Source: a virus (Duplodnaviria; Heunggongvirae; Uroviricota; Caudoviricetes). Taken from it: DNA of 41,111 nucleotides. Within the stretch, counting starts at the first letter, position 1, and every line of letters begins with the position of its first letter. Under the pieces are notes generated by a model. The model ran no database searches, had not been told where the DNA came from, and saw nothing but the letters and a program-made list of their open reading frames with translations. A program made the translations under genes and the position numbers. This document shows, one piece after another, positions 10,802-41,111 of this stretch. The stretch spans positions 1 through 41,111 of IMG/VR virus record IMGVR_UViG_2724679059_000002, one strand, 5' to 3'.

Positions 10802-10806
10802 TTAAT

Positions 10807-22115: not shown

Positions 22116-22408
22116 TCCTGTTCACTGGCCTCTTTGGCCATCTTCAAATACTGTTCAGGGCAATGCGCCATAACGCGCTGAAACAGTTCCAGCGCCAGAT
22201 TGCGTTGCCCCTCATTAAATGCCATTGCCATAGCGTCCATCGGTGAGATAGCGGAAAACACACGGCCTTTCTCCAGCACCGACCAGACAACGCGACGCCC
22301 CTGTTCACTGCTCATGACAAAGCGAATGTCATCAATTTCACGCTGTGCCATGTCACGTTGCTTACGGGCGTTTTCTTCTTTCAGTTGATCATCTTCGTAA
22401 TCTGTCAT
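22112..22408 (-). CDS. Hypothetical small protein between portal and scaffold
   Basis: 98-aa ORF with coupled stop/start to neighbours. Confidence 0.4.
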   Translation of the reverse strand: MTDYEDDQLKEENARKQRDMAQREIDDIRFVMSSEQGRRVVWSVLEKGRVFSAISPMDAMAMAFNEGQRNLALELFQRVMAHCPEQYLKMAKEASEQE

Positions 22409-23043
22409 TGTGATTGCCCACCCTGACCACTAACTGCATTCGCCATAGCTGACAAAACACTCGGATCCGAAGTTTTAGCTTCGCTTAGCGTCTTGGCGCC
22501 CTGTGCCGCCGCCATTCCCATCGCCATCATTTGTTGCTGCTGTTGCTGCTGTGCCCGTTGCTGGCGAGCCTGCTCAACCTGTTCCTGCGGAACAATGACG
22601 GTTGGAGACACTCCGGACATATCAGCGAATGCATCGATCGCCTGATCAACGTTGAGTTTGTCGAGAGCTTCTGGTTTCGCTTGCGCAAGTTGACCAATGA
22701 AGTTGACCGTAGACGCCAGACTGGACAGGCCGATAGACTTCTGCGCCTGAGCCATGACGGAAATGTATTCGACCTTCAGGGGCATACCTTCCATCGCGTC
22801 AGGCGGTGGCGGCAGCATGTTTTTACGCACCATCATCGAGAAAGCGCGGTCAATGAGAGGATTAAGACATTCGTCGTTCAGACGCTCCAGAACCGGCCCC
22901 AACATCAGAAGTTTTTCTTCTTTCATTTCGATCACCGCTTCAACAGGCATCGAGCGGGTATTGATGTTCTGCAACATCATGAACAGATCGACAAAGTAGG
23001 CGCTGTTAATGATTTGACGAGTGTCCTGAATGTCTGCCACCAA
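22405..23043 (-). CDS. Portal (head-tail connector) protein, C-terminal part after apparent frameshift
   Basis: C-terminus QQRAQQQQQQQMMAMGMAAAQGA resembles the T7 gp8 C-terminus; this frame stays open upstream past 23043, so the gene appears interrupted by a 1-nt frame change near 23070-23110. Confidence 0.55.
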   Translation of the reverse strand: MVADIQDTRQIINSAYFVDLFMMLQNINTRSMPVEAVIEMKEEKLLMLGPVLERLNDECLNPLIDRAFSMMVRKNMLPPPPDAMEGMPLKVEYISVMAQAQKSIGLSSLASTVNFIGQLAQAKPEALDKLNVDQAIDAFADMSGVSPTVIVPQEQVEQARQQRAQQQQQQQMMAMGMAAAQGAKTLSEAKTSDPSVLSAMANAVSGQGGQSQ

Positions 23044-24083
23044 ATCTGCTGTACTGGGGTTAACCAGATAAGCAGGCCTGAAGCCATCCTGACCAGTATC
23101 TGATCGATATACGTGATGTCGCCAGGAAGAAGGGAGGCGCGCTGATTCTTGAGGGAAGTCGGAGCAACCATCGGCGGATTGGTGGCTTTATCAATCAACT
23201 GCGACTTGCGCTTCTGGAGAAGCTGCAATGCCTTAACAGGTCCAAGCGCCAGCATACCAGGGCATGATGATCCATAAACATCTTCGCCGTTAACTTCCCA
23301 GCGCGGAGCCATAATTGGAAACTCATCGAATCCGGACTCACGCAACAACTTGTCGTTATCGCCACCAACCTCGTAATAAACCGATTTGAATGGCTTGTTC
23401 TTGCTATCCAGCTTCGATGTATCGCGGTCAATGTTCGGGTAAACCGAATGCATCACTTCAATCCACTTCTCGTAGGTGCCGCTTTCCCACATGCTTTTTA
23501 CGGATTCGCTGACGTTATTTAGCCCGAACTCCTGAACAAGCTGACGAACAGTCATAGAGAACTTGCGAAAACAGGTGTCCACACTGCCACGAGGTGAGTT
23601 AGCCAGGTAGTAACTGCCTATCGGGAATGGCATTGTGCGAATGATGTCCTCGTCATCCTCCAGCACTGCCATTGCACCAGTGCTGTATGTGCCGAGGCTT
23701 CCGTATAACTGCGGCAGCGACTGGTAGAGATTCGACTTATTGAACATATCGTTCATGCGGTTCTGCACCGCCTCAAGCCACAACTTAACAGGGCCATAAT
23801 CCATCATTTCAGGATCTGGCGTAGCCAGGCGAAACCACGGACGCGCGGGGCTTGTGATGCCTGACATCATGCCGCTGGCGAGAGTGCGCGCCGCCATAGT
23901 CCCGGTCGAATCAATAATGCGTGTATTGCGCCGATCGTTACGGTTGACCTCAGAAGTCAGAAAGCGGGAACCACGCGGGTTGATGTAATCACTCAACTCG
24001 CGCCAGTGCGGCTCGAACGACTGACGCTCGCTTTCAAGTTGTGCGAACTGTTTGTTCAATCGCTCTTTGGTTGTTTCCGCCAT
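22977..24083 (-). CDS. Portal (head-tail connector) protein, N-terminal part
   Basis: 368-aa ORF with RBS ggag; immediately follows terminase (across the tRNA/moron insert); joined with 22405..23043 gives ~560 aa, typical T7-type portal size. Confidence 0.6.
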   Translation of the reverse strand: MAETTKERLNKQFAQLESERQSFEPHWRELSDYINPRGSRFLTSEVNRNDRRNTRIIDSTGTMAARTLASGMMSGITSPARPWFRLATPDPEMMDYGPVKLWLEAVQNRMNDMFNKSNLYQSLPQLYGSLGTYSTGAMAVLEDDEDIIRTMPFPIGSYYLANSPRGSVDTCFRKFSMTVRQLVQEFGLNNVSESVKSMWESGTYEKWIEVMHSVYPNIDRDTSKLDSKNKPFKSVYYEVGGDNDKLLRESGFDEFPIMAPRWEVNGEDVYGSSCPGMLALGPVKALQLLQKRKSQLIDKATNPPMVAPTSLKNQRASLLPGDITYIDQILVRMASGLLIWLTPVQQIWWQTFRTLVKSLTAPTLSICS

Positions 24084-24097
24084 TTCAATGACTCCGG

Positions 24098-24304
24098 TTA
24101 CTGACCAAGTAGCGTTTTACCGCTGGTATTAGCGGTTGATGTGTCGCCCTGAGAACCGGTAAGCAGCGTAGAACTACGACCAGCAGCAGCGCGACGGCGA
24201 CGAGTTTCTTCGTCGCGGGCATCAACAACGGCGGCATCCTGCTCCTGTGGTGCTGCCTGAACTTCTGGTGTTGCAGGCACTGACGGTGAGCTACCCATGC
24301 ACAT
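24098..24304 (-). CDS. Small hypothetical protein upstream of portal
   Basis: 68 aa, RBS ggag, stop overlaps the portal start region. Confidence 0.35.
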   Translation of the reverse strand: MCMGSSPSVPATPEVQAAPQEQDAAVVDARDEETRRRRAAAGRSSTLLTGSQGDTSTANTSGKTLLGQ

Positions 24305-24372
24305 ATCAATGACTCCGTACGCAATTAAATTATTACCAATTTAACCATATATGATTTATTTATCGTAGATAG

Positions 24373-24409
24373 TTGACATTTAACGCACAAATTATTACCT
24401 TTCAGGTAA
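24373..24409 (+). promoter_or_regulatory. Candidate promoter (TTGACA -35) with overlapping operator TTACC-TTTCA-GGTAA, directed toward the tRNA and moron
   Basis: Perfect TTGACA at 24373-24378; operator at 24395-24409; same architecture as the promoter at 36105-36147 and sequence similarity to 5285-5350. Confidence 0.4.
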
Positions 24410-24731
24410 CCAAAGAGTTCATTCCGGTTACTAACCTGACTGGCTTGTCGTTAAATTGAACAGGTGGAGTGAGCTTTTATTTTGAGCAGTACGGCGTATG
24501 GCACATGCTACGATAGCGGTCTGGATACGTTTAAGGGGCACCCTCCCTTGCTCGGGCAAACGAACCAGGTAGCCGGAATGTGCAAGTCGAGCGGTTTTAT
24601 TCCGCGCACGGGGATTCACCATCCCGGCGATTCGGTGTGACGCCTCGGAAGAGACGAGGGTACAACGATGAGAGCATTTATGGAGCCGCGACAAAGTGTG
24701 GCGCCTTAACAGGCTAAGTGCTCTCAGCGTT

Positions 24732-24808
24732 GTGGCATTAGCTCAGTTGGACAGAGCAACCGCCTTCTAAGCGGTTGGTCGCAGGTTCGAATCCTGCATG
24801 CCACGCCA
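24732..24808 (+). tRNA. tRNA-Arg (anticodon UCU), phage-encoded
   Basis: Full cloverleaf: acceptor GUGGCAU/AUGCCAC, D-arm gctc-agttggaca-gagc, anticodon stem accgc/gcggt with loop cuUCUaa, T-arm gcagg-ttcgaat-cctgc, discriminator G and encoded CCA; close to E. coli argU in the arms. Confidence 0.9.
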
Positions 24809-24851
24809 GAATCACGCCTAAGGACCGTGATGCCAGAAGTTCCAGGCGCTT

Positions 24852-24893
24852 GGCGGTGATAGTTTCCCTTGAAGGACTATCACCGCCCTTTTT
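24852..24893 (+). terminator. Intrinsic terminator after the tRNA
   Basis: 12-bp stem ggcggtgatagt / actatcaccgcc followed by cttttt. Confidence 0.7.
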
Positions 24894-24923
24894 ACAGCAG
24901 GACGCCATTGCGATGACTTCATG

Positions 24924-24939
24924 CTGTAAACCCGTACAG
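24924..24939. promoter_or_regulatory. Weak LexA-box-like motif
   Basis: CTGT-aaacccgt-ACAG fits CTGT-N8-ACAG but the spacer is not AT-rich. Confidence 0.25.
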
Positions 24940-24971
24940 CCACGGAAGGCATAACTCATTGCTTCCAGTTC

Positions 24972-24994
24972 GCCCGGTTCGCCGGGCATTTTTT
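24972..24994 (+). terminator. Hairpin plus U-tract 12 nt upstream of the moron start (terminator or attenuator)
   Basis: gcccgg-ttcg-ccgggc followed by attttttaagg, then RBS aggtga and ATG at 25006. Confidence 0.45.
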
Positions 24995-25005
24995 AAGGTG
25001 AGATC

Positions 25006-25425
25006 ATGAAGACAATTGATATGTTGGCTAAGTATCTAAATGAATGGCCATTAAAATATTCTCGTATCGTTCAGGCTGAAGACTGCATTTTTTATGGCGT
25101 TTTTGCTGGTAATGAAATGCATTACGAAGTAATTCAGAGTGAGGGACTGGCCGGGTTAACTCTTAGCGAAGACCATGGTACTAGCGTTACGTTCCATGAC
25201 TGGATAACAGCACAACGTTCTGAAATGGAAAAAGGCGATGTTTTTGATATTTCTCGCGCTGTTTACGCTAAAGCAAAAAGTGATAATGATTACATGAGCG
25301 AACACTTATACAACATGAAGTTACAATGCCTGCATGCGGCGCTTATTCAGAATGGGCACTTCGATAAAACAAGTGCCATCAATATTGCGGAAGCCATCAA
25401 CGCTGGATTTAATGCCATTAAGTAA
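25006..25425 (+). CDS. Moron gene of unknown function (AT-rich, opposite strand to the flanking late genes)
   Basis: 139-aa ORF with RBS aggtga; between terminase and portal on the opposite strand; flanked by terminators on both sides; no recognisable domain by eye. Confidence 0.6.
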   Translation: MKTIDMLAKYLNEWPLKYSRIVQAEDCIFYGVFAGNEMHYEVIQSEGLAGLTLSEDHGTSVTFHDWITAQRSEMEKGDVFDISRAVYAKAKSDNDYMSEHLYNMKLQCLHAALIQNGHFDKTSAINIAEAINAGFNAIK

Positions 25426-25445
25426 CACCGTGACATGTCACAAAC

Positions 25446-25475
25446 AGCCAGCCGATGAGCTGGCTTTGTTTTATC
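25446..25475 (+). terminator. Intrinsic terminator after moron gene
   Basis: cagccagc-cgatga-gctggct hairpin followed by ttgtttta. Confidence 0.45.
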
Positions 25476-25515
25476 CTCATCAGAGGATATCAACGACATT
25501 ATCCCCACCAGCGGA

Positions 25516-26991
25516 TTAAGCATATGGATCGTAATCTGTGATGGCCTTGCCTTGCTGGTTCTGCTGCCCGGGAATTCGCAGACGCTTCGACACAGGGAAC
25601 GCAAACGTCAGCAGTAGCGCATCGCCTTTACCAGGAGAACGCCCAAGCCGCTCCTTGATATCTTCCTTCGGTTCGATAACGATTTTACCGTCCACTCGAA
25701 CTTTGTACTCTGCCGCAGACAGGTCGTCCGCTGTTTCCTGGTCATCCAGCATGCCGCCCAGCCTCAGCCATGTCTTGCATGAGTTGAACATCTCCCCACG
25801 CTTGTTGAGCATCTGCGGGTCAGTAGACGCGCCACCGAACGGAACAAGTTGCCATGTACGACCCCAGCCATCACCGATTGACTTCAGACCAGTTCCGTAA
25901 CCGAAGTCGATGAACACTGCGTCAGCCTGGTACCGGTCTTCAAAGTCAGCGATACGCTTCGCCATAATCAGATCGTCAGTGGTCTTGTTGCCAGTCCACA
26001 GCACCTTACTGTGCAGCCCCTGCCGCAGGTATATCACAGCGTCATCAACGCCGGAGTATGCCGGGTCAACGCCGATTATCACCGGAGCATGTGCAACCTG
26101 CGCAGCGGTTACCACCCGTTTCATTGCCTCGTCAGTAAGGCCGGTAGGGATAAACTGCAATTCAGATGCATCCGGGAATATGCCGCGCACACGGATTTTA
26201 ACGAAGTCGCTGTCTTCCCCGTAGTCATCAACCCATTTCTGCAACTGCTGTTTGTTAGTGCCTTCCACCGTCCGGCTGTCAATCTGCGCAGTTTTCCAGC
26301 GGTGTTTATATTTGCGGAAACATTCGCGAAAACGCCCGGTGTTACGTGTAGGGTTTCCGAACGCCACCCAGATAATCTCAGTGTCTTCGTCCGTAAGCGC
26401 ACCCTCAGCAACTTCCCACACCAGATCCGCAATGTTCGACGCTTCATCGAATACCACGATGATGCGTTTGCGCTCGTTGTGTAGTCCGGCGAATGCCTCA
26501 GTGTTGTGCTCAGACCAGGGTATTGCGTCAGCCCGCCACCGCTTGTCGTGCCCAGGGTCATTGCTGTACATCGCGGTAGCGGTACAGGTAAACCAGTCTT
26601 TCGTGATAGCAAGGTTCGACCACTTGATAATTTCCGGCCAGGTCTTCGTTCGTAGCTGGTTGTCGGTGTTGGCGGTCACCACGACCTTACAATCCTCGCA
26701 AGTGGACATGCCCCAGTTGATCAGCATTGAGATGAATGCGGATTTACCAATACCGTGACCAGAAGCGCGTGCCAACATAAGCGGCTGATAGCGCGTCTCT
26801 GGATTCTGCAGGTGATCACGTATCTCTCGGAACGCATCAGCCTGCCACTGACGTGGGCCGGTAGCATGTGCCAGTTCAGTCCCCTCTTCCCCCCACGGGA
26901 ACGCATAGAGGGCATAGCCAAGCGGATCGTGAGTGAACCCTGCAATATCCTCGATTAACTGCTCTTCAGGAGATAACGCTGTATCTGTCAC
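25516..26991 (-). CDS. Terminase large subunit
   Basis: 491 aa; Walker A-like GHGIGKS; acidic nuclease-type motifs in the C-terminal half; positioned between terS and portal. Confidence 0.8.
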   Translation of the reverse strand: MTDTALSPEEQLIEDIAGFTHDPLGYALYAFPWGEEGTELAHATGPRQWQADAFREIRDHLQNPETRYQPLMLARASGHGIGKSAFISMLINWGMSTCEDCKVVVTANTDNQLRTKTWPEIIKWSNLAITKDWFTCTATAMYSNDPGHDKRWRADAIPWSEHNTEAFAGLHNERKRIIVVFDEASNIADLVWEVAEGALTDEDTEIIWVAFGNPTRNTGRFRECFRKYKHRWKTAQIDSRTVEGTNKQQLQKWVDDYGEDSDFVKIRVRGIFPDASELQFIPTGLTDEAMKRVVTAAQVAHAPVIIGVDPAYSGVDDAVIYLRQGLHSKVLWTGNKTTDDLIMAKRIADFEDRYQADAVFIDFGYGTGLKSIGDGWGRTWQLVPFGGASTDPQMLNKRGEMFNSCKTWLRLGGMLDDQETADDLSAAEYKVRVDGKIVIEPKEDIKERLGRSPGKGDALLLTFAFPVSKRLRIPGQQNQQGKAITDYDPYA

Positions 26992-27584
26992 TGATTACCA
27001 TCCTGACGTTCTTTGAGTCGCTTCCTGGCTGCTGCTATGCGATCAGCAATTGTCACATTCACATTAACATCCAGGCGTTCTTTGAATGCGTTGACGTCGA
27101 CGTGCTTACCAATCAGTTCGAGGTTCTTCACCTTGTCAGGCCATTTAATTTTTTTGAGGATTGTCTCTATCGAATCCTCGTTCATGTTCATGATGGTCGA
27201 TGACAGATCAAAGCCGCTAAGCGTAGTGCGCCAGATTTTCGGCCACTCGCGGATTGGCTTAAGGCTCCCATCGTCGTTGAGGATGTCGATCACGTCCATC
27301 TGGTCGATCTCCACCAGGCGCATGAGAACGTAATCAGCACTGACGCGCATTCGTTTGTTGCGCTCCTCCATCAACTCGGCAATCCGTTTCTGAATGCGTT
27401 CATCGCGCATCATGACACTGGCTTTAACTGCCGCTGTATTTGGGGAGAATCCTGCGTTAATCGCAGCCTGAGTCTGATTTTCAGGCGTTTTGATGTATGA
27501 CTGGCAATAAGCCTCCTGCATTGCTGTTAGTGGCTTAAATTGCGTTGATTTGCGTTTATAGGTTTTAGGTTCAGCAGGCATCAT
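26988..27584 (-). CDS. Terminase small subunit (P27-family-like)
   Basis: Immediately upstream of and overlapping terL; start assigned to internal ATG-ATG at 27584 (track ORF begins at a TTG at 27662). Confidence 0.6.
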   Translation of the reverse strand: MMPAEPKTYKRKSTQFKPLTAMQEAYCQSYIKTPENQTQAAINAGFSPNTAAVKASVMMRDERIQKRIAELMEERNKRMRVSADYVLMRLVEIDQMDVIDILNDDGSLKPIREWPKIWRTTLSGFDLSSTIMNMNEDSIETILKKIKWPDKVKNLELIGKHVDVNAFKERLDVNVNVTIADRIAAARKRLKERQDGNQ

Positions 27585-27658
27585 AACCACCGTGGTAATA
27601 GTTACCGTTGTGGTAATAGTACCATGCAAAATAAAGCCGCCATAGTTGGCGGCAGTAT

Positions 27659-27871
27659 TCAAAGTCCATCAAATTCATCGTAAAAACTCTCGTCAAGATA
27701 CCCTTTCCATTTACCGCGAATGAAAATTACATCCTCGCCGCAAGGGTGCTGACTGTCGATAACTATATCCCTCCTGGCGCAACCATACTTATGCATGAGA
27801 AATTTAACCTCTTTCGGAAAATTAGCTGAGTTATCTCTCATATCTTCAAGGTCGTAGCGTATTTTTGGCAT
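27659..27871 (-). CDS. Hypothetical small protein upstream of terS
   Basis: Start set to ATG at 27871 (MPKIRYD...) with RBS gaaggtg; the palindrome GTGACATGTCAC lies immediately upstream. Confidence 0.4.
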   Translation of the reverse strand: MPKIRYDLEDMRDNSANFPKEVKFLMHKYGCARRDIVIDSQHPCGEDVIFIRGKWKGYLDESFYDEFDGL

Positions 27872-27888
27872 AACACCTTCGTGACATG

Positions 27889-28230
27889 TCACACTATTAA
27901 TTTCGTTTCATGCCAGCCTTTGGTCACCCAGCATTGCGAGTCACCATTACACGGGCATGAATTAACTGGAACTCTCTCGCCGCACTTACCGCAACGTTTT
28001 CTGCTGATCGATTTTATACGCCCGCGCACCCGGGCATCATCCTGGCGGATCAGCAGCGCGATGTACTCGGCCATTTCATAGGGATCTCGACCAGGGCGCC
28101 GGGCGGCGCAGTTACGCTCCAGCATTTCAATTTCCTGAGCATCAAGCACAATCTCCAGCTTACGCACACCAGATGCAGCTTGTCTGGCTCTCTGAGCGGC
28201 TTTGCGCTCTGCTGCTGATTTAGCCATCAA
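27889..28230 (-). CDS. Hypothetical protein with C-terminal Cys cluster (possible zinc-binding regulator)
   Basis: 113 aa; C-terminus CGKCGERVPVNSCPCNGDSQC; basic, helical N-terminus. Confidence 0.4.
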   Translation of the reverse strand: MMAKSAAERKAAQRARQAASGVRKLEIVLDAQEIEMLERNCAARRPGRDPYEMAEYIALLIRQDDARVRGRIKSISRKRCGKCGERVPVNSCPCNGDSQCWVTKGWHETKLIV

Positions 28231-28370
28231 TATTTACCTTTATCGCGTATACCTTTACCGGTTTATCGCCGAAGTGGGGATGTGTGATTGTCTTTGCTTC
28301 GTGCATTTGTCGCACTTTCGGCACCATCCAGATAGGCACATCCGTCCGCAATTAACACATATAGGCCACA

Positions 28371-28652
28371 TCATTTTTCCTCTTTTGGTTTATGAATCTG
28401 AATGGTCATGCCACTTTGAGTGGTGACTACAATGACAGAACCAGGCTGAAGGCTGTTAAGATTGAATGCTTCGTAAAACGAATCCAATGCCAGTGCTTTT
28501 TTATTCTTTCGGTTCCACCAACGCCATCCCTTGCTACAGGCTACACTGACAATCCACTGTCCACTCCTGTAAGCCATATAAAACCAGATGAGCAAAACCT
28601 GAAGGAATGCTATCCAGTCAATAATCGTATATTTCGCGAAGGAGTCCATCAC
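28371..28652 (-). CDS. Small membrane protein
   Basis: 93 aa, N-terminal hydrophobic helix (IIDWIAFLQVLLIWFYMAY). Confidence 0.4.
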   Translation of the reverse strand: MMDSFAKYTIIDWIAFLQVLLIWFYMAYRSGQWIVSVACSKGWRWWNRKNKKALALDSFYEAFNLNSLQPGSVIVVTTQSGMTIQIHKPKEEK

Positions 28653-29863
28653 TTCACCTCCTGCGGCGGTTCTGGTAGTGGCATCCAGTGGGTTACACCG
28701 CCAATTGGTTCATCGTCGTCGTACTCCAATGCGGCTATATAGAACCCGTCACGACGAGAATAAGAAATCCCGGACATTACAATGCCATCCGAAACAACAA
28801 TAATGTCACCCGTTTCTTCCGGCATTCGCTCACTACAGCTTATCCAACCATCCGGAGTTACCGGAGTTGGTCCATCGAATTCGGGCATGTCAGGACCTTT
28901 TCTGATAGCTTTAGCCAGCTCCAGCGGGTCATCGTAAAGCCAGTCGCCAGTTTGTGGGTGATTTGCTTCTGCAAGCTGCGCAGCCCATTCAAGACCATCT
29001 TTTTGACCTTGGAGATAATCAAGCGGCAACTCTTCATGATTACTTACAGGTTGGCTACCCTGAAGCATGGCAGCGTGGCAGGCATACTCAACGCCCTTAA
29101 CTGCATCTGCGCAGTAGTTATAGCGATTGCATTCCACTAATTTCCGTTTGAGTTTTTCAATTGCCTGCGCGACATCAGCCTGTATTACAGGAACTGGCGG
29201 AACGGCTGTTTGCTCTCGAACGTCATTAGTCGCTATCGGTTCTGCTGCCAACTGACTGGCATATTTGTTAATGGTAACGATAAGCTCTTGCTCAGCCTCA
29301 TCCAGACAATCACCGATACCTCGCCTGTCACCGTCAAAATCATCGAAATCGGCACGAATCTTGGCAACCTTCAGGATTGCGGACAACACCTCACTAGGAA
29401 TTACCGGATAGTTGGTTGACGTTTCCGCGATTTCCCGAAAATTATTGGTTGACGAATTCTTATTTTCCCGAAAGTTTCCGGACTGAAGCATGGCGGCGCG
29501 GCAGGCGTTCCAGCCTCTTACCTCTGCAATAGCGGCAACCGCATCAACCGCGTACATGCTAAGAGGATTAGGCATTGGTTTTTCTTCCGGTACTACTTGC
29601 GCTGGAGGGGCGGCGTAAATACCCTCTATCACTAAATGTTTGCGCTCAAAATCATCTGGCTCTCGATGATATACGTAACTCCAGTCACCAAGGTTATCAT
29701 TGCGCCTGCAACGGAAACCTATCGGCTCGACTTCCAGCGCTGCCAGAGCAATTCGTGCCAGTTCTTCCGCTTCTTCTGCTGGCAGTACAACGTTGCTACC
29801 AGGTCCGTATGTTTCGCGCCACTGCTTGATTGTCAGCAGTCGCTCTTTGGTTATAGTGGTCAT
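28649..29863 (-). CDS. DUF551-domain phage protein with internally repeated N-terminal region
   Basis: C-terminus DGWISCSERMPEE...THWMPLPEPP fits the DUF551 pattern; internal repeat NACRAAMLQSG / YACHAAMLQGS also visible at DNA level (~410 bp apart). Confidence 0.55.
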   Translation of the reverse strand: MTTITKERLLTIKQWRETYGPGSNVVLPAEEAEELARIALAALEVEPIGFRCRRNDNLGDWSYVYHREPDDFERKHLVIEGIYAAPPAQVVPEEKPMPNPLSMYAVDAVAAIAEVRGWNACRAAMLQSGNFRENKNSSTNNFREIAETSTNYPVIPSEVLSAILKVAKIRADFDDFDGDRRGIGDCLDEAEQELIVTINKYASQLAAEPIATNDVREQTAVPPVPVIQADVAQAIEKLKRKLVECNRYNYCADAVKGVEYACHAAMLQGSQPVSNHEELPLDYLQGQKDGLEWAAQLAEANHPQTGDWLYDDPLELAKAIRKGPDMPEFDGPTPVTPDGWISCSERMPEETGDIIVVSDGIVMSGISYSRRDGFYIAALEYDDDEPIGGVTHWMPLPEPPQEVK

Positions 29864-31101: not shown

Positions 31102-31147
31102 TGGTTGCCTCCTGTTAAATTTTCTGTGATATCAGCGTTTACGACGA

Positions 31148-32607: not shown

Positions 32608-32668
32608 CTTTACCCTCGCTTATCCACATAACTTATTGATTACATTGATAACTAAAAAGATCGTCGAT

Positions 32669-33013: not shown

Positions 33014-33016
33014 GAT

Positions 33017-33093: not shown

Positions 33094-33130
33094 TCATTTA
33101 GGAGTAAAAAAATGCGCTATCGCGCTGGTA

Positions 33131-33907: not shown

Positions 33908-34721
33908 CCCACACCCCTTCTATCCAGTCAGTGTTATTCCAGTCAAGCTCATCGCTTTTCCCGACGTTTTTTGATTTTCCCCTGATATGATTTACGTGCC
34001 TGGCGAATTTTTGTTCCCACTGAACCTGCGTGAACACTTTGCCCTCAGCCATCCAGTAATCCCGGAATGCAGCAAGTTCAGCAGGTGTAAATTCCGGTTC
34101 CGGCAGGGCCGTTCCCCACAGCGCAGCACGCCGTCGAAAATCCGGCGACGGATGCCAGCCATCGGTCATCGGAAATTTCCCAATAGGTTCACTCAGGCCA
34201 TCCAGAAATGCAGGTTCTGCCACCTGCAACGGCGTACCGTTCGCTTCACTGGTCGGATCACTCTCGCGCGCGTGTGCTATGTGTGGGGTTTTATATATAT
34301 CTTCCTCTTCCTCTGGTAACTCCTTTTGTAACGCTGTTGGCGTTACTTTTTGCGTTACTCGTTTTCGATGCTCTGCCACTCTTCTATTCGTAAGTGCACG
34401 TTTTTTCGATGATTCTCCATTGTGTCGCTCAAAGTTTGGAAGAATTAGTTTGCCGTCATGATAAGCAAGCCATCCGACGCTAATGAGGGCGTCAGCAAAT
34501 CCTGTAATAAAAGCGAGTCTATCAAGTACTCCTTTTGTAACGCTGCCAGCGTTACCGTCTATTGTTTGCTGGTCAGCCCATGCCCATATACGAACCAGCT
34601 TTCCAAGAACAGCATCTGGATCAATACCCAGAATTTCTGCTATCTGAAAAATTTCAGGTTTATCAGGAGTGATAACTTCAACCTTAATCCAGCTGCTTGC
34701 CATAGGTTTCCCCTCTTGCAC
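33879..34721 (-). CDS. Replication initiator, lambda O-like by position
   Basis: Immediately upstream of and overlapping P; acidic linker EEEEDIY; contains iteron-like repeats. Confidence 0.55.
   Translation of the reverse strand: MQEGKPMASSWIKVEVITPDKPEIFQIAEILGIDPDAVLGKLVRIWAWADQQTIDGNAGSVTKGVLDRLAFITGFADALISVGWLAYHDGKLILPNFERHNGESSKKRALTNRRVAEHRKRVTQKVTPTALQKELPEEEEDIYKTPHIAHARESDPTSEANGTPLQVAEPAFLDGLSEPIGKFPMTDGWHPSPDFRRRAALWGTALPEPEFTPAELAAFRDYWMAEGKVFTQVQWEQKFARHVNHIRGKSKNVGKSDELDWNNTDWIEGVWDEINSRTSQ
34320..34555. repeat. Candidate replication-origin iterons inside the O-like gene
   Basis: Two 27-bp copies ctccttttgtaacgctgNNNgcgttac at 34320-34346 and 34529-34555, each with internal dyad GTAACGCTG/CAGCGTTAC, plus an extra GCGTTAC at ~34351. 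Confidence 0.45.
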
Positions 34722-34896
34722 TCTTTAGTGCACAAGCAAATTCATTACGATGGCGGTTGGCGCTATTCATTGCACATTCAACACATGTTCCGTTCAGAAC
34801 ATACCTTTCAGAGAGATGGCCGTGACGGCACCGCTTTCCTGTGAAATAGCGATTTAACCCGGCTTTTGCGGCCTCCATTCTGGTTACTATCTTCAA
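34684..34896 (-). CDS. Small Cys-rich (zinc-ribbon-like) protein between cro-like and O-like genes
   Basis: 70 aa, CRHGH...CVEC; occupies the position of cII in the lambda gene order but has no obvious similarity to it. Confidence 0.4.
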   Translation of the reverse strand: MKIVTRMEAAKAGLNRYFTGKRCRHGHLSERYVLNGTCVECAMNSANRHRNEFACALKSARGETYGKQLD

Positions 34897-34974
34897 TTTT
34901 TCCGCCTCTTTTTGTTATTGATATTGGATATTTTGCACAATTGGAAAATTTGATCAACCAGATTTGGTTTTTTA

Positions 34975-34989
34975 TTACCTTTGAGGTAC
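34975..34989. promoter_or_regulatory. Operator-like palindrome TTACC-TTTGA-GGTAC
   Basis: Member of the repeat family, just downstream (in transcription direction) of the hairpin at 35004-35023. Confidence 0.35.
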
Positions 34990-34995
34990 GAATAG

Positions 34996-35023
34996 ATATG
35001 AAAAGACCGCCGGGTGGCGGTCT
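34996..35023 (-). terminator. tR1-like terminator downstream of cro-like gene
   Basis: Perfect 8-bp stem agaccgcc-gggt-ggcggtct followed on the - strand by a U-rich tract (uuuucauaucuauu). Confidence 0.45.
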
Positions 35024-35044
35024 ACAGAGGGTTGTAGCTGGATA

Positions 35045-35275
35045 TCATGAGTAGAAGAAGTATGCCAGTTCTGCTTTTGAGCGCAGCCATTGTCTTGTTT
35101 TACAGGCTTTAAAAAGCCCATTCATCAATACTTTACCTGGCATTTTGCGCTTACCTGTTAAGTGAGTCTGGATATAGTGACTCGTCGTTCCGGCTTCCTG
35201 TGCGAAGGCTTCACGCTCATCCGGAGTAAGTGCAAGCCAGTGCTTTTTGAAATCGAAATGTCCGTTATCGCTCAT
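35045..35275 (-). CDS. Cro/CII-like HTH regulator (first gene of the operon divergent from the repressor)
   Basis: 76 aa; HTH-like segment AFAQEAGTTSHYIQTHLTGKR; divergent from the CI-like gene across an operator-containing region. Confidence 0.5.
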   Translation of the reverse strand: MSDNGHFDFKKHWLALTPDEREAFAQEAGTTSHYIQTHLTGKRKMPGKVLMNGLFKACKTRQWLRSKAELAYFFYS

Positions 35276-35311
35276 AGCTATTGCCTGATATTTATTTCAG
35301 ATAATAAATAT

Positions 35312-35374
35312 TCACCCATAAGGTAACAAAAATCAAGGATAGTTACCTATGAGGTGCATTTACCTGTTGGGTAA
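35312..35374. promoter_or_regulatory. Immunity-region operators: three TTACC-N5-GGTAA-type sites between cro-like and repressor genes
   Basis: Sites at 35312-35326 (TCACC-CATAA-GGTAA), 35343-35357 (TTACC-TATGA-GGTGC) and 35360-35374 (TTACC-TGTTG-GGTAA), centre spacing 31 and 17 bp; half-sites resemble lambda operator half-sites (TCACC / GGTA). Confidence 0.6.
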
Positions 35375-35429
35375 TATTGCTTTAAATTGAATCATCTACT
35401 GATTCATATATGAGGCGATTTTCCAGAAA

Positions 35430-36014
35430 ATGAAAAGTATCCAGGACGTCCGCAGGCAAAATCTCAACGACTTGATCGACCGTGAATTCAATGGTGTTCA
35501 GACGCGGATGGCAGAAAAACTTGGAACTCAGGCAAATCTGGTAAACCGCTGGGCTCTTGGCAAGAAGGTTATCGGCGACCAGGTTGCGCGAAAAATTGAA
35601 GCTGCCGCCAATAAACCCCGTAACTGGCTTGATATCGATCGCTCGCTTTCTCAGGAGGGGTTTCAGCCTGTCGGCCCAAGCGACATTGGTCAGCTGGCGG
35701 CTCACAACCTGGAACGCTGGATGAGCGAAAGCCGCGACCTTTCAACGCAGGGAAAACTACACCGCGCATCCGGCGTCGCCCAGGTGACAATCAGCCGCCT
35801 GTTAAACAATGAAGTCAGCGTTTCCATTTCCACCCTGGAGAATGTTGCATCCGCATTCGGGCGTCACGGCTATGAATTACTGATTCACCCGCACGACCCT
35901 GCGACTATCAACTATGACCGCTCGCGCTACGCATTGTTACCCGAAACAGAGAAGGCAAAGATCGAAAGTTACATTGAATTTGTCATCAGCCAGAACGAAA
36001 GAAGCAAACAATAA
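35430..36014 (+). CDS. CI-like prophage repressor with two HTH regions and no S24 peptidase domain
   Basis: HTH at QTRMAEKLGTQANLVNRWALGK and a second HTH-like segment ASGVAQVTISRLLNNE; no Ser-Lys autocleavage motifs; divergent from the cro-like gene. Confidence 0.6.
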   Translation: MKSIQDVRRQNLNDLIDREFNGVQTRMAEKLGTQANLVNRWALGKKVIGDQVARKIEAAANKPRNWLDIDRSLSQEGFQPVGPSDIGQLAAHNLERWMSESRDLSTQGKLHRASGVAQVTISRLLNNEVSVSISTLENVASAFGRHGYELLIHPHDPATINYDRSRYALLPETEKAKIESYIEFVISQNERSKQ

Positions 36015-36070
36015 AACTATAGTTTTCAGTAAGTAAGCCGCCTCATGGCGCTTTTTTATTGCCAACAAGA

Positions 36071-36147
36071 TTACCTTATGGGTAATTTTTTTAACTCATA
36101 TCTATTGACATCAAACCAAATACGCATAATTATTACCTCAACGGTAA
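36071..36147 (+). promoter_or_regulatory. PL-like early promoter with flanking operators
   Basis: Operator TTACC-TTATG-GGTAA (36071-36085), TTGACA (36105-36110), 17-bp spacer, AATTAT (36128-36133), operator TTACC-TCAAC-GGTAA (36133-36147). Confidence 0.5.
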
Positions 36148-36166
36148 CAGACCGAGGTAACAAGTT

Positions 36167-36319
36167 ATGCAGTGGAAAATCATCAACGGTTGGTACTGCG
36201 TTACTGCATGCGGATTCATGAGCTGGAAATTCCGCACCTTACAGGAAGGCATTAAGTGGGCTTTCGTCAGCAAAGAAGCTCGCGATGTGGCCAACGATAA
36301 CGAGATATGGGAGGGCTGA
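36167..36319 (+). CDS. Small ORF, first gene of the early-left operon (below track threshold)
   Basis: ATG at 36167 preceded by gagg; 50 codons (MQWKIINGWYCVTACGF...). Confidence 0.3.
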   Translation: MQWKIINGWYCVTACGFMSWKFRTLQEGIKWAFVSKEARDVANDNEIWEG

Positions 36320-36321
36320 TA

Positions 36322-36621
36322 ATGAACGTTAATCAGCAGAAAAATCTTCAAAAAATCATGCTGGCATTCGACAAGGACTACCGCCTGTCAGAACAGCTAT
36401 ATGACCGACAAGTTGAACTGATTGAGAGCATCCGACTTCATCAACTGTCCTCAACTTTCGACGTTGTAACAGGCAAAGGCGTTCGTCAGGAAGTACTGGA
36501 GGCTGCTAAAGACAGCCCTGAGTTCGAAGAACTGATGGATGCCTATCGGCGAGAGGCAATGGCAATTATCGCCCGCTGGGATCTGGCAGATCAGCTTGAT
36601 GGACAGAGGGACGCGGCATGA
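36322..36621 (+). CDS. Hypothetical early protein upstream of exonuclease
   Basis: Start at ATG 36322 with strong SD ggaggg; 99 aa, acidic and helical; stop overlaps the exonuclease start. Confidence 0.45.
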   Translation: MNVNQQKNLQKIMLAFDKDYRLSEQLYDRQVELIESIRLHQLSSTFDVVTGKGVRQEVLEAAKDSPEFEELMDAYRREAMAIIARWDLADQLDGQRDAA

Positions 36622-37439
36622 AACCGGGAATTTATTTCGACATCAGCAACGAAGACTACCACGCCGGTGACGGCGTGAGTAAGTCGCAACTGGACATGGT
36701 TGCCAAGAATCCGGCGCTTCTCAAATGGGTTCAGGCAGCACCAGAAGACGAAGAGAAAAAGTCTGCACTAGATATGGGAACTGCATTGCACTGTCTGCTT
36801 CTGGAACCTGGAGAATTCGACAAACGCTTCATTGTTTCACCAAAGTTCGATCGTCGGACGAAACAAGGTAAAGCTGACGAAGAAGCATTTCTTCGTGATG
36901 TAGCGGATATGGGGATTTCGGTACTTGATGCAGAGCAGTGGCGAAAACTGGAGCTGATGCGTGATAGCGCAATGGCTCACCCAGCGGCACGCTGGATGTT
37001 GGAAGCACCTGGTTACTGCGAAGCATCAATGTACTGGAACGATGAAGATACGGGTGAGTTGTGCCGAATTCGTCCAGACAAATGGCTGAACGAGCACAAC
37101 GTGATCGTCGACGTGAAAAAGGTTGCAGATATGGACCGTTTTGCACGCCACATCGAGGAATTCCGCTACCACGTGCAGGACGCAATGTACCGCGAAGGCG
37201 CAACGAGGGTTACTGGTCAACCGCATGGTTTTTTCTTTCTTGCCGTGAGCGAAAGCATTGATTGTGGTCGGTATCCGGTACGCGTGTTCGAGTTGGATGC
37301 GCCGGATGTCGATGCCGGGCACGCTCTGTTCCGCCGGGATCTGAATACCTATCACGAATGCCGCATAAATGATGAATGGGGCGGCGTGGAAATTATTAAA
37401 CGCCCTGACTGGGCACGTAAACAGGATATGTATGTATGA
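36618..37439 (+). CDS. Phage recombination exonuclease, PD-(D/E)XK superfamily
   Basis: 273 aa with IRPDKW...VIVDVKK pattern; translationally coupled to the downstream RecT-like gene. Confidence 0.55.
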   Translation: MKPGIYFDISNEDYHAGDGVSKSQLDMVAKNPALLKWVQAAPEDEEKKSALDMGTALHCLLLEPGEFDKRFIVSPKFDRRTKQGKADEEAFLRDVADMGISVLDAEQWRKLELMRDSAMAHPAARWMLEAPGYCEASMYWNDEDTGELCRIRPDKWLNEHNVIVDVKKVADMDRFARHIEEFRYHVQDAMYREGATRVTGQPHGFFFLAVSESIDCGRYPVRVFELDAPDVDAGHALFRRDLNTYHECRINDEWGGVEIIKRPDWARKQDMYV

Positions 37440-38317
37440 GCAATGATATCGCAATCACATCACAACCAGGCGCAACTGTAGGCACTGCTGCGGCAATCTT
37501 CAGCCCCGAGGGCATGAATCAACTGGTGCGTTTCGCGGAGTTGATGTCACAAAGCAAAGCGACTGTACCGAAACATCTTGAAGGCAAACCTGCCGATTGC
37601 CTGGCGGTGACTATGCAGGCGGCACAGTGGGGAATGAACCCTTTCGCCGTGGCGCAGAAAACGCATGTGGTAAACGGAACGTTAGGCTACGAAGCACAGT
37701 TGGTAAACGCGGTCGTATCCTCTTCCAGCCTGCTGGCGACACGCCTGAATTATCGCTGGAGCGGTGACTGGTCGAATGTTAATGGCAAAACAGATAAATC
37801 ACCGAATCTGACGGTAACTGTGTCAGCAGTTCTTAAAGGTGAAACAGAACCCCGTGAGCTTACCATCAGTATGGCGCAAGCCGGAGTGCGTAACTCTCCA
37901 TTGTGGGAACAGGATCCGCGCCAGCAGCTTGCCTATCTTTGCACGAAACGATGGGCTCGCCTGCACGCTCCTGATGTGCTTCTCGGTGTTTACACCCCTG
38001 ACGAATTACAGGAAACGGCACCGCGCGTTGAGCGAGACATTACTCCGCAAACAACTACTGCTGCGGGAATGAACAGTCTGATCAACGCTAAACCAGTGAA
38101 AAAGCCTGATGAGCAAACTCGTAAAGCGGATAGCCGTGATCCAGAAGAAATGCTGATGGCCTTTACCAGCGCAGCGATGAATTACAGCACTGTCTCCGAA
38201 CTGGATAAGGCTTACAAATACATTGCACAAAAACTTTCAGATGATGACGAACTGCTGGCAAAAGCCACCGACGTTTACAGCGTTCGTCGGGAAGAATTAA
38301 ACGAAACATCTATGTAA
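37436..38317 (+). CDS. recT: RecT-family single-strand annealing protein
   Basis: Central region ADCLAVTMQAAQWGMNPFA...GYEAQL resembles RecT; paired with the upstream exonuclease. Confidence 0.6.
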   Translation: MSNDIAITSQPGATVGTAAAIFSPEGMNQLVRFAELMSQSKATVPKHLEGKPADCLAVTMQAAQWGMNPFAVAQKTHVVNGTLGYEAQLVNAVVSSSSLLATRLNYRWSGDWSNVNGKTDKSPNLTVTVSAVLKGETEPRELTISMAQAGVRNSPLWEQDPRQQLAYLCTKRWARLHAPDVLLGVYTPDELQETAPRVERDITPQTTTAAGMNSLINAKPVKKPDEQTRKADSRDPEEMLMAFTSAAMNYSTVSELDKAYKYIAQKLSDDDELLAKATDVYSVRREELNETSM

Positions 38318-38366
38318 CCACCACCGCGGCGCCACACGCGCCGCACTGCAACCAAGAGAGGTATTT

Positions 38367-38615
38367 ATGAAAGGTGCATTAGGTAAGAAGGAACTCCTGG
38401 CGGTGGTGCCACTGTCATGGAGCACTATCGACCGTATGGAGCGCGCAGGGGAATTTCCTAAACGCTGGTATATCACTGACAAACGCTGCGCATGGAACCG
38501 TGATGAAGTTGAGCGTTGGCTTGATGAACGTCAGGCAGCAAGCCCGGCAGAGTTCCAGGGTAAAAAACCTCCTGTTCAGCAACGTGTATATCGTCCTGTG
38601 AGCAACGCTGCATGA
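38367..38615 (+). CDS. AlpA-family DNA-binding protein / excisionase
   Basis: LSWSTIDRMERAGEFPKRWYITDKRCAWNRDEVERWL matches the AlpA/Xis HTH pattern; near the integrase. Confidence 0.75.
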   Translation: MKGALGKKELLAVVPLSWSTIDRMERAGEFPKRWYITDKRCAWNRDEVERWLDERQAASPAEFQGKKPPVQQRVYRPVSNAA

Positions 38616-38757
38616 GTGCGCTGCTAAGGCACTGGAGCAAATGGTCAGGATGGTACTTATTCCTGGCCTCTGTTTCAGCATGGCTTTATCTGCTGGCATT
38701 AATTTTCAGAGAGGGTTGGATTAAGTGAGAAAGTTAAGCCGACTTGAAAAATATCAC

Positions 38758-39024
38758 ATGAACAAGGTTTCAATGCGCAGCCCTTCAAAGGTTGTTGCCG
38801 TTAATCCTGCGGCGATAGAGATCGAAAAACGCGCGATTGAAAGAGAGAAAAAAGGGCAGTTCCGCATTGCCGCCCACCTTTGGCTTCAGTGTATGGATGT
38901 TGCTTCTGGTGATGTTGAGCGTGCAAGGATCGCGGTTCGCAGGGACCAATGTATCACAAAAGGTAACGGCCTTCGCCGTGGCGACTATAGCGGCATAGGA
39001 TGTTGTGGGGTGGTTTATGACTAA
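38758..39024 (+). CDS. Small hypothetical protein (possibly ANR-family-like regulator)
   Basis: Start set to ATG 38758 (MNKVSMRSPSKV...); small, conserved Trp/Cys/Arg spacing; frequently seen next to AlpA and int in P4-like modules. Confidence 0.35.
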   Translation: MNKVSMRSPSKVVAVNPAAIEIEKRAIEREKKGQFRIAAHLWLQCMDVASGDVERARIAVRRDQCITKGNGLRRGDYSGIGCCGVVYD

Positions 39025-39667
39025 GAAATACACACTAATCTATGCAGATCCACCCTGGGTATACCGGGACAAAGCCGCAGATGGTAATCGCGGTGCCGGT
39101 TTTAAATATCCGGTTATGAGTGTGCTGGATATCTGCCGCCTTCCTGTGTGGGATTTGGCCGATGAAAACTGTCTGTTGGCCATGTGGTGGGTGCCTACAC
39201 AACCACTCGAAGCACTAAAAGTTGTTGAAGCCTGGGGATTCCGTCTGATGACCATGAAGGGCTTCACGTGGATAAAATGTGGTAGTCGACAACCAGATAA
39301 ACTGGTTATGGGTATGGGACACATGACTCGCGCCAATAGTGAAGATTGCCTGTTTGCAGTAAAGGGAAAATTACCTACGCGCATTAATGCAGGGATCGTT
39401 CAGTCATTTACCGCACCGCGGCTTGAGCATTCAAGAAAACCAGATGTCGTTCGTGAAAAACTTGTGCAATTGTTAGGCGATGTTTCTCGCATTGAACTGT
39501 TCGCCCGCCAGACGTCTCATGGCTTCGATGTTTGGGGTAATCAGTGCGAAGACCCGGCAGTGCAACTACACCCTGGATACGCGTTGGATATTGCCGGATT
39601 AACAAATGCATTCAGCAATGCTCCGCTGTCACCAACAGACAACCAGGGGCGGGAGCGTGCAGCATGA
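39017..39667 (+). CDS. MT-A70 family N6-adenine DNA methyltransferase
   Basis: Catalytic motif DPPW (YADPPWVYRD); ~216 aa. Confidence 0.8.
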   Translation: MTKKYTLIYADPPWVYRDKAADGNRGAGFKYPVMSVLDICRLPVWDLADENCLLAMWWVPTQPLEALKVVEAWGFRLMTMKGFTWIKCGSRQPDKLVMGMGHMTRANSEDCLFAVKGKLPTRINAGIVQSFTAPRLEHSRKPDVVREKLVQLLGDVSRIELFARQTSHGFDVWGNQCEDPAVQLHPGYALDIAGLTNAFSNAPLSPTDNQGRERAA

Positions 39668-39858
39668 ACAGGGCATCACCAGCAGATTTAAGGAAATGCC
39701 TTGAAACTGCAAACATGCTTGCACACAGCGGGATCAGGTTTGTTCCAATTCCCGCTGTCACTGATGCTGAATTTGCAACACTGTCAGCAATATTCGAAAA
39801 CAAAATTGAATCACTGGCAGCAGAAGCAGAGATGGAAGAAAATCAGCAGAACTATTAA
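39664..39858 (+). CDS. Small hypothetical protein
   Basis: ATG overlaps the methyltransferase stop (ATGA); 64 aa, acidic C-terminus. Confidence 0.4.
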   Translation: MNRASPADLRKCLETANMLAHSGIRFVPIPAVTDAEFATLSAIFENKIESLAAEAEMEENQQNY

Positions 39859-39861
39859 ACG

Positions 39862-40104
39862 TTATTCCCCCGCCATCCACTTCTCAAACTTCGACGGGGA
39901 GAACGGAATCAGATCCGTATGCTCCCCGTTAATCCAGGAATCAATCATATCGGCCCACTGCTGCAACATGTAGGCGCGCTGTCTGGCGTATTCCGCTTTG
40001 TTATATACGGCGCGCACACCTTTCTGCTCATGTGCCAGAGCCTTTTCAATCCAGTCTGAAGGATAACCAGCCTCATGCAACAACGTACTGGCTGTACGGC
40101 GCAT
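39862..40104 (-). CDS. Integrase C-terminal catalytic fragment (separated from the main ORF by a frameshift)
   Basis: Contains HDMRRTASTLLHEAGY and ...RAVYNKAEY, i.e. the His-x-x-Arg and catalytic Tyr region; in-frame stop immediately upstream. Confidence 0.6.
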   Translation of the reverse strand: MRRTASTLLHEAGYPSDWIEKALAHEQKGVRAVYNKAEYARQRAYMLQQWADMIDSWINGEHTDLIPFSPSKFEKWMAGE

Positions 40105-41111
40105 ATCGTGTACGGTGAAGCCTCAATATGCTCACCATCTTCATTTATTATTTTCACCGTTCTGTCGATCAGAGAGTTCAGCGCGGCATTAGATAATGGC
40201 TTCCGGAAATTGTAACGACCAGGAACCAGATATTCACTTCCACCAGCGCACATCTGCAACCCAACCAATATATCCTGTGCCTGTTTAGGCAGGTAAATAA
40301 CGTGCGCCCGGCTTCCCTTCATGCGGTCTGAAGGAATTGTCCATGTCCATTTTTTAAAATCTATTTCATCCCACGTTGCATTGGTGAATTCGCCTTTACG
40401 AACCATAGTGATAAGCACCAGCTTTAAAGCCATTTTCATAGTGCCCATAGCACCAATGGCATCCAGCGTGCGGAAGAACAGGCCAATTTCTTCTGGTGTC
40501 AGTGTTCGCTCTCGTGGTTTAAATATGGCGATAGACGAAGGTTTAATGTCAGCCGCAGGATTAAACAAACCATGACCACGGTCATTGGCGTGACGGTATA
40601 CGCTGCTGATGATCTCCCTGGCCTGTACTGCTGTTGCCCGACCACCGCGTTCGACAATCCGGTCACACAAATCACGAACCATCGATGTGGTAATTTCAGC
40701 CATCATTTTGTTGCCAAGAACCGGAAGTATGTCACGGTCGATCACCGCCTGCTTCATTGCGCGGGTACTGTCAGCCAGGATAACGTGTTTCATATAACTG
40801 TCGGTATGTACCGCAAACGTCTCGGCACCACGAATCTTTTTGATACCGTCACGTTTAGCCGCAGCCGGTGACTGGCCTGCTTTAAGCAGCTTCTTTGCAG
40901 CAATCAGTTCTTCCCGCGCTTCTGCCAGGCTGATACCGTCACGCCCATACTGCCCGATTACCAGTGTTTCGCGGCGACCGTTGATACGGTAGTCATAGCG
41001 AAACGAGACCGTGCCTGACGTAAGCACAGCTACATACAGCCCGTCACGATCGGAGACCTTGTACAGTTTGTCCTGCGGCTTGAGGTTTTTTAATTTTGTA
41101 TCGGTAAGCAC
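39945..41111 (-). CDS. P4-type tyrosine integrase, main ORF; N-terminus at or just beyond the window edge, C-terminus out of frame
   Basis: N-terminal arm-binding domain LTDTKLKNLKPQDKLYKVSDRDGLYV; ORF reaches the right window edge; the frame changes near 40100-40130 before the catalytic motifs. Confidence 0.8.
   Translation of the reverse strand: MLTDTKLKNLKPQDKLYKVSDRDGLYVAVLTSGTVSFRYDYRINGRRETLVIGQYGRDGISLAEAREELIAAKKLLKAGQSPAAAKRDGIKKIRGAETFAVHTDSYMKHVILADSTRAMKQAVIDRDILPVLGNKMMAEITTSMVRDLCDRIVERGGRATAVQAREIISSVYRHANDRGHGLFNPAADIKPSSIAIFKPRERTLTPEEIGLFFRTLDAIGAMGTMKMALKLVLITMVRKGEFTNATWDEIDFKKWTWTIPSDRMKGSRAHVIYLPKQAQDILVGLQMCAGGSEYLVPGRYNFRKPLSNAALNSLIDRTVKIINEDGEHIEASPYTICAVQPVRCCMRLVILQTGLKRLWHMSRKVCAPYITKRNTPDSAPTCCSSGPI

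Follow-up and report, generated by a model that had tools for sequence, protein, structure and literature searches.

Are the portal and integrase genes of this prophage broken because the element is decaying, or because bases were lost when it was sequenced? The question arises from a stretch of 41,111 nt (the window), for which the original prediction had offered a decaying prophage or homopolymer sequencing errors as alternatives, based on single-base frame changes in the portal gene, the integrase gene and a host-like gene. We compared the window and the host DNA that adjoins it with intact homologs and near-identical genomes.

Identity of the element and its attachment site

The window is identical to contig LNZV01000034.1 of the draft assembly GCA_001611715.1 across all overlapping loci that were compared. 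It carries a phiV10/epsilon15-like (Uetakevirus) prophage at the canonical site, the 3′ end of guaA. The left boundary is marked by the following feature:

1161 to 1177, no strand assigned: att core, 17 bp, AATCATTCCCACTCAAT, at the prophage/host junction

The other copy of the core lies 191 nt past the end of the window, which is also the start of the integrase gene, at the 3′ end of guaA. Both copies are intact. The published 17-bp Uetakevirus core is attgagtgggaatgatt (PMC9782041), and both this core and the integration at the guaA 3′ end were found here. Strain no107 (NZ_CP075374.1) has an empty site at guaA. This type of prophage is common, being present in 544 of 5,426 complete E. coli genomes (~10%).

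Nucleotide similarity and gene tables that are collinear with those of phiV10 and its relatives support the assignment. The nucleotide identity to phiV10, vB_EcoP_ZX5 and epsilon15, which are members of the genus Uetakevirus with prophages at guaA, is 98.5–99.2% in the portal region and 98.5–98.7% in the integrase region. The gene order is also shared, running from lysis through tailspike, core proteins, capsid, portal, terminase and early genes to the integrase. Mosaicism relative to these phages is seen in the accessory modules, with an SGNH/GDSL hydrolase as the tailspike and a different early region. The portal and integrase genes of the window, as deposited, each lack one base, unlike those of the three phages.

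Single bases are missing from the portal, integrase and yfgI genes

The three interrupted genes and two of the deletion sites are:

532 to 1070, plus strand: host gene yfgI (DUF5384), start ATG at 532; repairs to 179 aa
22405 to 24083, minus strand: portal gene (Pfam PF12236, Head-tail_con), in two frames, from profile matches; repairs to 559 aa
23097 to 23098, no strand assigned: 1-nt deletion in the portal gene, AA to A on the plus strand, without a slippery sequence
39862 to 41111, minus strand: tyrosine integrase gene (Pfam PF00589 plus arm-binding domain), from profile matches; repairs to an intact 416 aa
40120 to 40124, no strand assigned: 1-nt deletion in the integrase gene, CCC to CC, with an adjacent G to C at 40124, from alignment to homologs

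A frame switch of the portal gene near 23070–23110, with both frames open, had been predicted, and alignment with intact homologs placed it at a 1-nt deletion at 23097/98. As deposited, no single frame covers the full length of Head-tail_con. An ORF of 368 aa (22977 to 24083, minus strand) matches positions 2–321 of the 489 profile positions, and a second one of 212 aa (22405 to 23043, minus strand) matches positions 342–488. Both frames are open at the junction, the C-terminal one as far as 23188 and the N-terminal one down to 22977. Intact homologs have one gene of 1680 nt encoding 559 aa. The missing base is one A (CCAGTAATCTG has become CCAGTATCTG), and its re-insertion yields a 559-aa protein that is identical to one found on at least 1000 contigs.

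The same approach confirmed that the catalytic region of the integrase is out of frame, with a stop before the motif GFTVHDMRR, and traced this to the loss of one C of the CCC at 40120–22. The first frame (39945 to 41111, minus strand, 388 aa) contains Arm-DNA-bind_3, Phage_int_M and positions 3–123 of the 172 positions of Phage_integrase. The part containing HDMRR, with the HxxR and Tyr residues (39862 to 40104, minus strand), is in a different frame from the N-terminal domains, and a TGA at 40123–40125 directly precedes GFTVHDMRR. Intact homologs have 1251 nt and 416 aa. When repaired, the window's own allele is identical to an intact protein on the contig of one other isolate, while the consensus integrase, present on at least 1000 contigs, additionally differs from it at Gln333. 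The adjacent G to C at 40124 changes Gln to Glu. We considered it as a local miscall and rejected this, as the Glu allele is in frame in another isolate (Logan ERR10017399), the integrase DNA of which is otherwise one synonymous base from that of the window; it is a natural allele.

The third case, a signal peptide separated from the body of a host-like protein, is yfgI. One T (TT to T) is missing at 594/595, just past the signal peptide (...AIA|SS), and adding one base restores a 179-aa YfgI identical to a protein on at least 1000 contigs. Exact protein look-up found the 158-aa YfgI fragment on one contig only, and a second, independent assembly of the isolate was not found. This third case already hinted at a cause that is not specific to the phage.

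Each of the three genes is one base short of every homolog compared. To find out how widespread the junctions are, we used 80-nt queries across each of the three sites against E. coli records at a threshold of at least 99% identity. No match was obtained in 506 records for the portal junction, in 543 for the integrase junction and in 5,331 for the yfgI junction, and none of the three deletions is present in any of the 5,426 complete E. coli genomes.

These results also bear on whether the frame changes could be programmed ribosomal frameshifts, natural recoding sites or gene boundaries. The frames that are both open across the portal junction would fit such a reading, but every homolog examined has one base more at the site and is a single unbroken ORF, so that the frame change is not conserved. 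A slippery heptamer is present at none of the sites, and no other genome searched has the junctions. Because the homologs are intact, natural recoding and gene boundaries are refuted, and we consider this explanation hardly credible.

Further deletions in the prophage

The prophage was screened for private indels against 5 to 14 comparators, scored per alignment. In addition to the portal and integrase sites (23097 and 40120–22), two non-coding ones were found:

7640 to 7641, no strand assigned: private 1-nt deletion, CAC to CA, non-coding, absent from 8 comparators
36049 to 36050, no strand assigned: private 1-nt deletion, GG to G, non-coding, from alignment to comparators

The first precedes by 2 nt the ATG of a small ORF with a signal peptide. 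The second affects the 3′ arm of a hairpin that is rich in GC and has a T-run behind it (GCCGCC-TCAT-GGC[G]GC-TTTTTT); it lies downstream of a repressor-like HTH gene (35430 to 36014). No private 1-nt insertion was seen in the prophage against the same 5 to 14 comparators. The three predicted frame changes are all present, each within the predicted interval, but they are not the only ones: the sites at 7640 and 36050 have to be added, as well as three more just outside the window.

Several other differences proved to be natural. Further frameshifts at 12606–15664 and 8327–12609, suspected from the gene lengths of UTAK-1, were discarded, as the same-module relatives OkiPb01711, A357 and L024 match in gene lengths. 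A 2-nt difference at 1157 is shared with strain no107, and a 6-nt difference at 34314 is an in-frame change of a repeat unit.

The adjoining host DNA has lost single bases at a similar rate

For comparison, we aligned the host flanks, taken from the same contig as the prophage, with the near-identical strain no107. The left flank (10,584 nt) has no substitution and one deletion, that in yfgI. The right flank (8,366 nt) has no substitution and three one-base deletions, one in the guaB–xseA spacer (A6 to A5) and two in xseA; on the contig, these three correspond to positions 15483, 15830 and 15982 of locus L015. The host flanks thus contain four one-base deletions and no substitution in 18,950 nt, compared with four one-base deletions in 39,934 nt of prophage. 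Taken together, there are eight deletions and no insertion, about one per 7.4 kb, in the ~59 kb of one contig that the count covers. With four of the eight in host DNA, a uniform rate in host and prophage was not rejected (P=0.24).

Both coding and non-coding DNA are affected. Three of the eight deletions are in non-coding DNA, which represents roughly a tenth of the total; this is the direction to be expected if purifying selection had acted on real mutations, although the number of sites is small.

Other genomes served as controls. In the 17.4-kb structural block, the source has two private 1-nt indels and the relatives L024, L026, L027 and L028 have none. In guaA–guaB–xseA, the source has three, and five other genomes have none, including one with 118 private substitutions.

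Assembly errors versus decay of the prophage

The one-base losses recur, unaccompanied by other changes, in the neighbouring host DNA, which points to errors in the draft assembly and not to prophage decay. The indels occur without substitutions, in one direction and independently of function, and the comparators have none. We conclude that the frame breaks are very probably deletion-type assembly errors and not mutations of the organism. Base-calling or consensus errors in the low-accuracy draft GCA_001611715.1 (LNZV01000034.1) would have dropped single bases. The argument is a statistical one, by which the cause of the deletions is very probably technical.

If the deletions were real, the prophage would be freshly inactivated, the integrase lesion preventing excision and the portal lesion preventing packaging, and yfgI and xseA would be independent new pseudogenes. 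The frameshifts are, after all, present in the deposited sequence. Defective prophages of the Uetakevirus type exist, relatives are annotated with IS-disrupted and frameshifted genes, and the record of phiv142-3 has two integrase-like proteins under the match; the slight over-representation of non-coding sites would also fit. As in cryptic or defective E. coli prophages, e.g. decayed lambdoid remnants, the deposited sequence has breaks in genes of excision as well as of packaging.

However, the window differs from such remnants in that the att cores are intact and adjoining host genes are hit by the same lesions. Large deletions, IS insertions, nonsense mutations and an excess of amino-acid changes were not found in the prophage, for which the coverage by close relatives is thin at ~28.3–32.4 kb. 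The genes are broken without other decay: the repaired proteins exactly match recorded ones, and the other gene lengths equal those of the relatives, with the same thin coverage at ~28.3–32.4 kb. The lesions are not concentrated in the prophage, and the three frameshifts of the window were found in no other genome searched. The decisive comparison is that of the host flanks, where four deletions and no substitution separate 19 kb from a near-identical genome. Assuming that 10–20% of natural differences are indels, a rough figure, the probability of four deletions with no substitution would be about 1e-4 to 2e-3. Real deletions would represent an unusual burst of −1 frameshifts without substitutions, and we regard them as unlikely. 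Decay, as originally suggested, is not supported: the host flanks, with four one-base deletions in 18,950 nt, have at least as high a rate as the prophage, with four in 39,934 nt, and the prophage is otherwise complete.

A related possibility is that the deletions are real and genome-wide, in a mutator or mutagenised lineage biased to −1 frameshifts. Their uniform distribution over host and phage DNA and their single direction would be expected for such a lineage. Known E. coli mutators, with defects in mismatch repair or proofreading, also have elevated substitutions, and their indels cluster in long runs; here, the 19 kb have no substitution, and two of the eight deletions lie outside any run. 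One would also expect essential genes to be hit by chance all over the genome. This explanation appears very improbable, more so than recent inactivation of the prophage.

Apart from the probable assembly errors, the prophage is ordinary and apparently complete. The frame breaks in portal, integrase and yfgI contain no new biology, and their main value is a caution: on the window alone, pipelines searching for intact integrase and portal genes would score the prophage as defective, while the host flanks reveal that the one-base losses belong to the assembly. Alignment of host flanks to a near-identical complete genome offers a cheap and general test of assembly error versus real prophage decay.

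Annotation and sequence context of the deletions

The annotation of the source contig lacks gene calls for xseA, portal and integrase. The truncated products of the portal and integrase genes gave no exact match on look-up, consistent with their annotation as pseudogenes.

The bases lost from the three genes of the window come from runs of only 2–3 nt, and all eight deletions are in runs of 1–3 nt with the exception of the A6. Of the predicted homopolymer sequencing errors, the sequencing error is supported by the host-flank deletions with no substitutions, but the sites are not typical long homopolymers. One single deletion in a long homopolymer is not the textbook pattern of flow-based sequencing and counts against error.

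GATC is present within 10 nt of three of the eight sites (background 8.3%; P=0.023, post hoc), and CCWGG is near none of them. Errors at methylation sites, of the nanopore type, were set aside, as the GATC signal is too weak to interpret.

Indel-rich draft assemblies, flow-based or from uncorrected long reads and with frameshifted 'pseudogenes', share with the contig that only one-base indels occur, in one direction, at about one per 7 kb and irrespective of function or coding status. The window differs from them in that most sites are in runs of 1–3 nt and not in long homopolymers. In the literature searched, neighbouring accessions are documented, but nothing was found on LNZV or its platform. 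LNZT, the WGS accession two before LNZV (Brazil), was sequenced with Ion Torrent PGM and assembled with SPAdes; on this circumstantial ground, Ion Torrent is possibly also the platform of LNZV.

An integrated phiV10-type prophage

The window starts with host DNA, followed by a prophage:

1-1160, host genes yfgH and yfgI
~1178 to window end, prophage of the phiV10/epsilon15 type, genus Uetakevirus

In the portal region, the prophage shares 98.5-99.2% identity with phages ZX5, HEMP4, phiv142-3 and phiV10; its integrase region matches TL-2011b, ZX5 and phiV10 at 98.5-98.7% identity. Related prophages are present in 544 of the 5,426 complete E. coli genomes. The integrase start codon is the exact window end. 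A 17-bp core, AATCATTCCCACTCAAT, occurs at 1161-1177, with a second copy at the guaA 3′ end, 191 nt past the window end. For phiV10, epsilon15 and ZX5, this sequence has been published as the attP/attB core (PMC9782041). At the empty site of E. coli strain no107 (NZ_CP075374.1), guaA adjoins yfgI. The underlying element is an ordinary, well-known prophage, and the frame breaks are very probably an artefact within it.

Three genes interrupted by one-base losses

The frame disruptions that the original prediction had reported for the portal, integrase and yfgI genes were confirmed, and the comparison with intact homologs that it proposed placed each break as a one-base loss. The affected phage reading frames are:

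22977..24083 (-), portal ORF, Pfam Head-tail_con positions 2-321
22405..23043 (-), portal ORF, Pfam Head-tail_con positions 342-488
39945..41111 (-), integrase ORF of 388 aa, arm-binding and central domains plus the first 123 of 172 catalytic-domain profile positions

Portal homologs are encoded by a single 1680-nt gene, and one A is missing from the window at 23097/98, where both reading frames are open. Putting one base back yields a 559-aa portal protein that is letter-for-letter identical to a protein on at least 1000 contigs. Programmed frameshifting has a negligible probability and was excluded, because the ORFs are uninterrupted in all homologs and there is no slippery site.

The yfgI gene lacks one T at 594/95, immediately 3′ of the signal peptide, and restoring it gives a 179-aa YfgI that is likewise identical in every letter to a protein on at least 1000 contigs. 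The 158-aa YfgI fragment has a single record, KYZ92005.1, from contig LNZV01000034.1 (283,670 bp; assembly GCA_001611715.1), and the window equals this contig at every overlap with the fetched loci.

Integrase homologs have a 1251-nt gene. One C of a CCC run is missing at 40120-22, and the part starting with GFTVHDMRR lies in a different frame, right behind a TGA. Restoring one base leads to an intact integrase with the window's own allele, Glu333, which is recorded once (Logan ERR10017399); the consensus form, Gln333, is found on at least 1000 contigs. At the DNA level, only two differences separate the ERR10017399 integrase from that of the window: the base that the window lacks and a single synonymous change. 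This intact 416-aa Glu333 protein is on one contig only, from a different host strain. A local miscall beside the deletion (G to C at 40124) was considered and rejected: since the same allele is found intact in ERR10017399, the change from CAG to GAG (Gln333 to Glu) is a genuine rare natural allele.

None of the three junctions has a match of at least 99% identity in 506 (portal), 543 (integrase) and 5,331 (yfgI) E. coli records, and all three are absent from the complete E. coli genomes.

One-base deletions in host and prophage DNA

Host DNA on either side of the window (9.4 kb left, 8.6 kb right) was available from the same assembly and was compared with no107, the complete genome closest to the host backbone. 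Over 10,584 nt of the left flank the yfgI deletion is the sole difference, and over 8,366 nt of the right flank there are no substitutions and three one-base deletions, corroborated against four other genomes. Together with two non-coding private deletions inside the prophage, i.e. present in the source only, the further sites are (L015 is the source-contig locus that extends beyond the window end):

7640, 2 nt 5′ of a start codon
36050, 3′ arm of a terminator-like hairpin
L015 15483, A6 to A5 in the guaB-xseA spacer
L015 15830 and 15982, both in xseA, 152 nt between them

The right-flank deletions, 3.4-3.9 kb past the window end, are packed within 500 nt, and xseA has no gene call in the source contig. 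Their clustering suggests a locally poor assembly stretch.

In total, eight one-base deletions and no one-base insertions were found in 58,884 nt (about one per 7.4 kb); the tally covers ~59 kb of one contig, and eight may be an undercount at ~28.3-32.4 kb, where close-relative coverage is thin and extra deletions could therefore escape notice. Four are in host and four in prophage DNA, a split that fits a uniform rate (P=0.24). For comparison, a 17.4-kb structural-module alignment with four relatives (~99.7-99.9% identical) showed private one-base indels in the source only (2); one relative has an in-frame 9-nt insertion. Across guaA-guaB-xseA the source has three private one-base indels and five other genomes have none, even though one of these carries 118 private substitutions.

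Natural divergence consists chiefly of substitutions, and selection removes frameshifts from conserved genes. Judged from sequence comparison, the frame breaks are very probably consensus errors in the draft assembly, because the 19-kb backbone has four one-base deletions and no substitutions, and because the changes are always deletions, are absent from other genomes and affect phage genes, host genes and spacers at the same rate. The proposed decaying prophage is not supported, as host DNA has the same lesions at the same rate and the repaired proteins match known ones; a real, recent prophage inactivation accompanied by independent host pseudogenes is improbable, and a frameshift-biased mutator lineage is even less likely. 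Of the alternative proposal, homopolymer sequencing errors, the errors are supported, but long homopolymers are not, since the majority of the deletions fall in runs of 1-3 nt.

LNZT, the WGS accession two before LNZV, is a Brazilian Serratia with Ion Torrent PGM sequencing and a SPAdes assembly, and LNZU is a Brazilian E. coli. The neighbouring LNZT gives only a hint that Ion Torrent may also have been used for LNZV. GATC lies within 10 nt of three of the eight deletions (window 594 and 23097, L015 15982) versus 8.3% of positions, a post hoc result (P=0.023) that was not relied on; CCWGG is near none of the eight.

Other variation in the window and in related prophages

Just 3′ of tRNA-Arg(TCT) (24732-24808), a hairpin at 24852-24888 has 12-nt stems, GGCGGTGATAGT and ACTATCACCGCC. 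The relatives closest in the structural module (L024, L026-L029) have its 12-nt loop as the reverse complement (one mismatch), and five complete genomes (L007-L011) have it in the window orientation, suggesting a small natural polymorphism in which the loop is flipped. A swapped receptor-recognition module occupies the tailspike position: the gene there (3237-5231, minus strand) encodes a 664-aa SGNH/GDSL hydrolase, has a GC content of ~37% versus ~50% elsewhere and is shared by a subset of the relatives only.

At 34314, a DnaT-like replication gene differs from relatives by a 6-nt in-frame repeat unit (TCCTCT), and L026 carries an extra 9 nt of in-frame repeat near window position 24283. Unlike the one-base deletions, these length differences are natural polymorphisms. 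Annotated lesions include a frameshifted DUF1064 gene in the prophage of L009 (NZ_CM163381.1), an IS3 element within the capsid cement gene in that of L011 (NZ_CM165897.1) and DUF551 fragments in several related prophages; genuine decay therefore occurs elsewhere among prophages of the phiV10/epsilon15 type.
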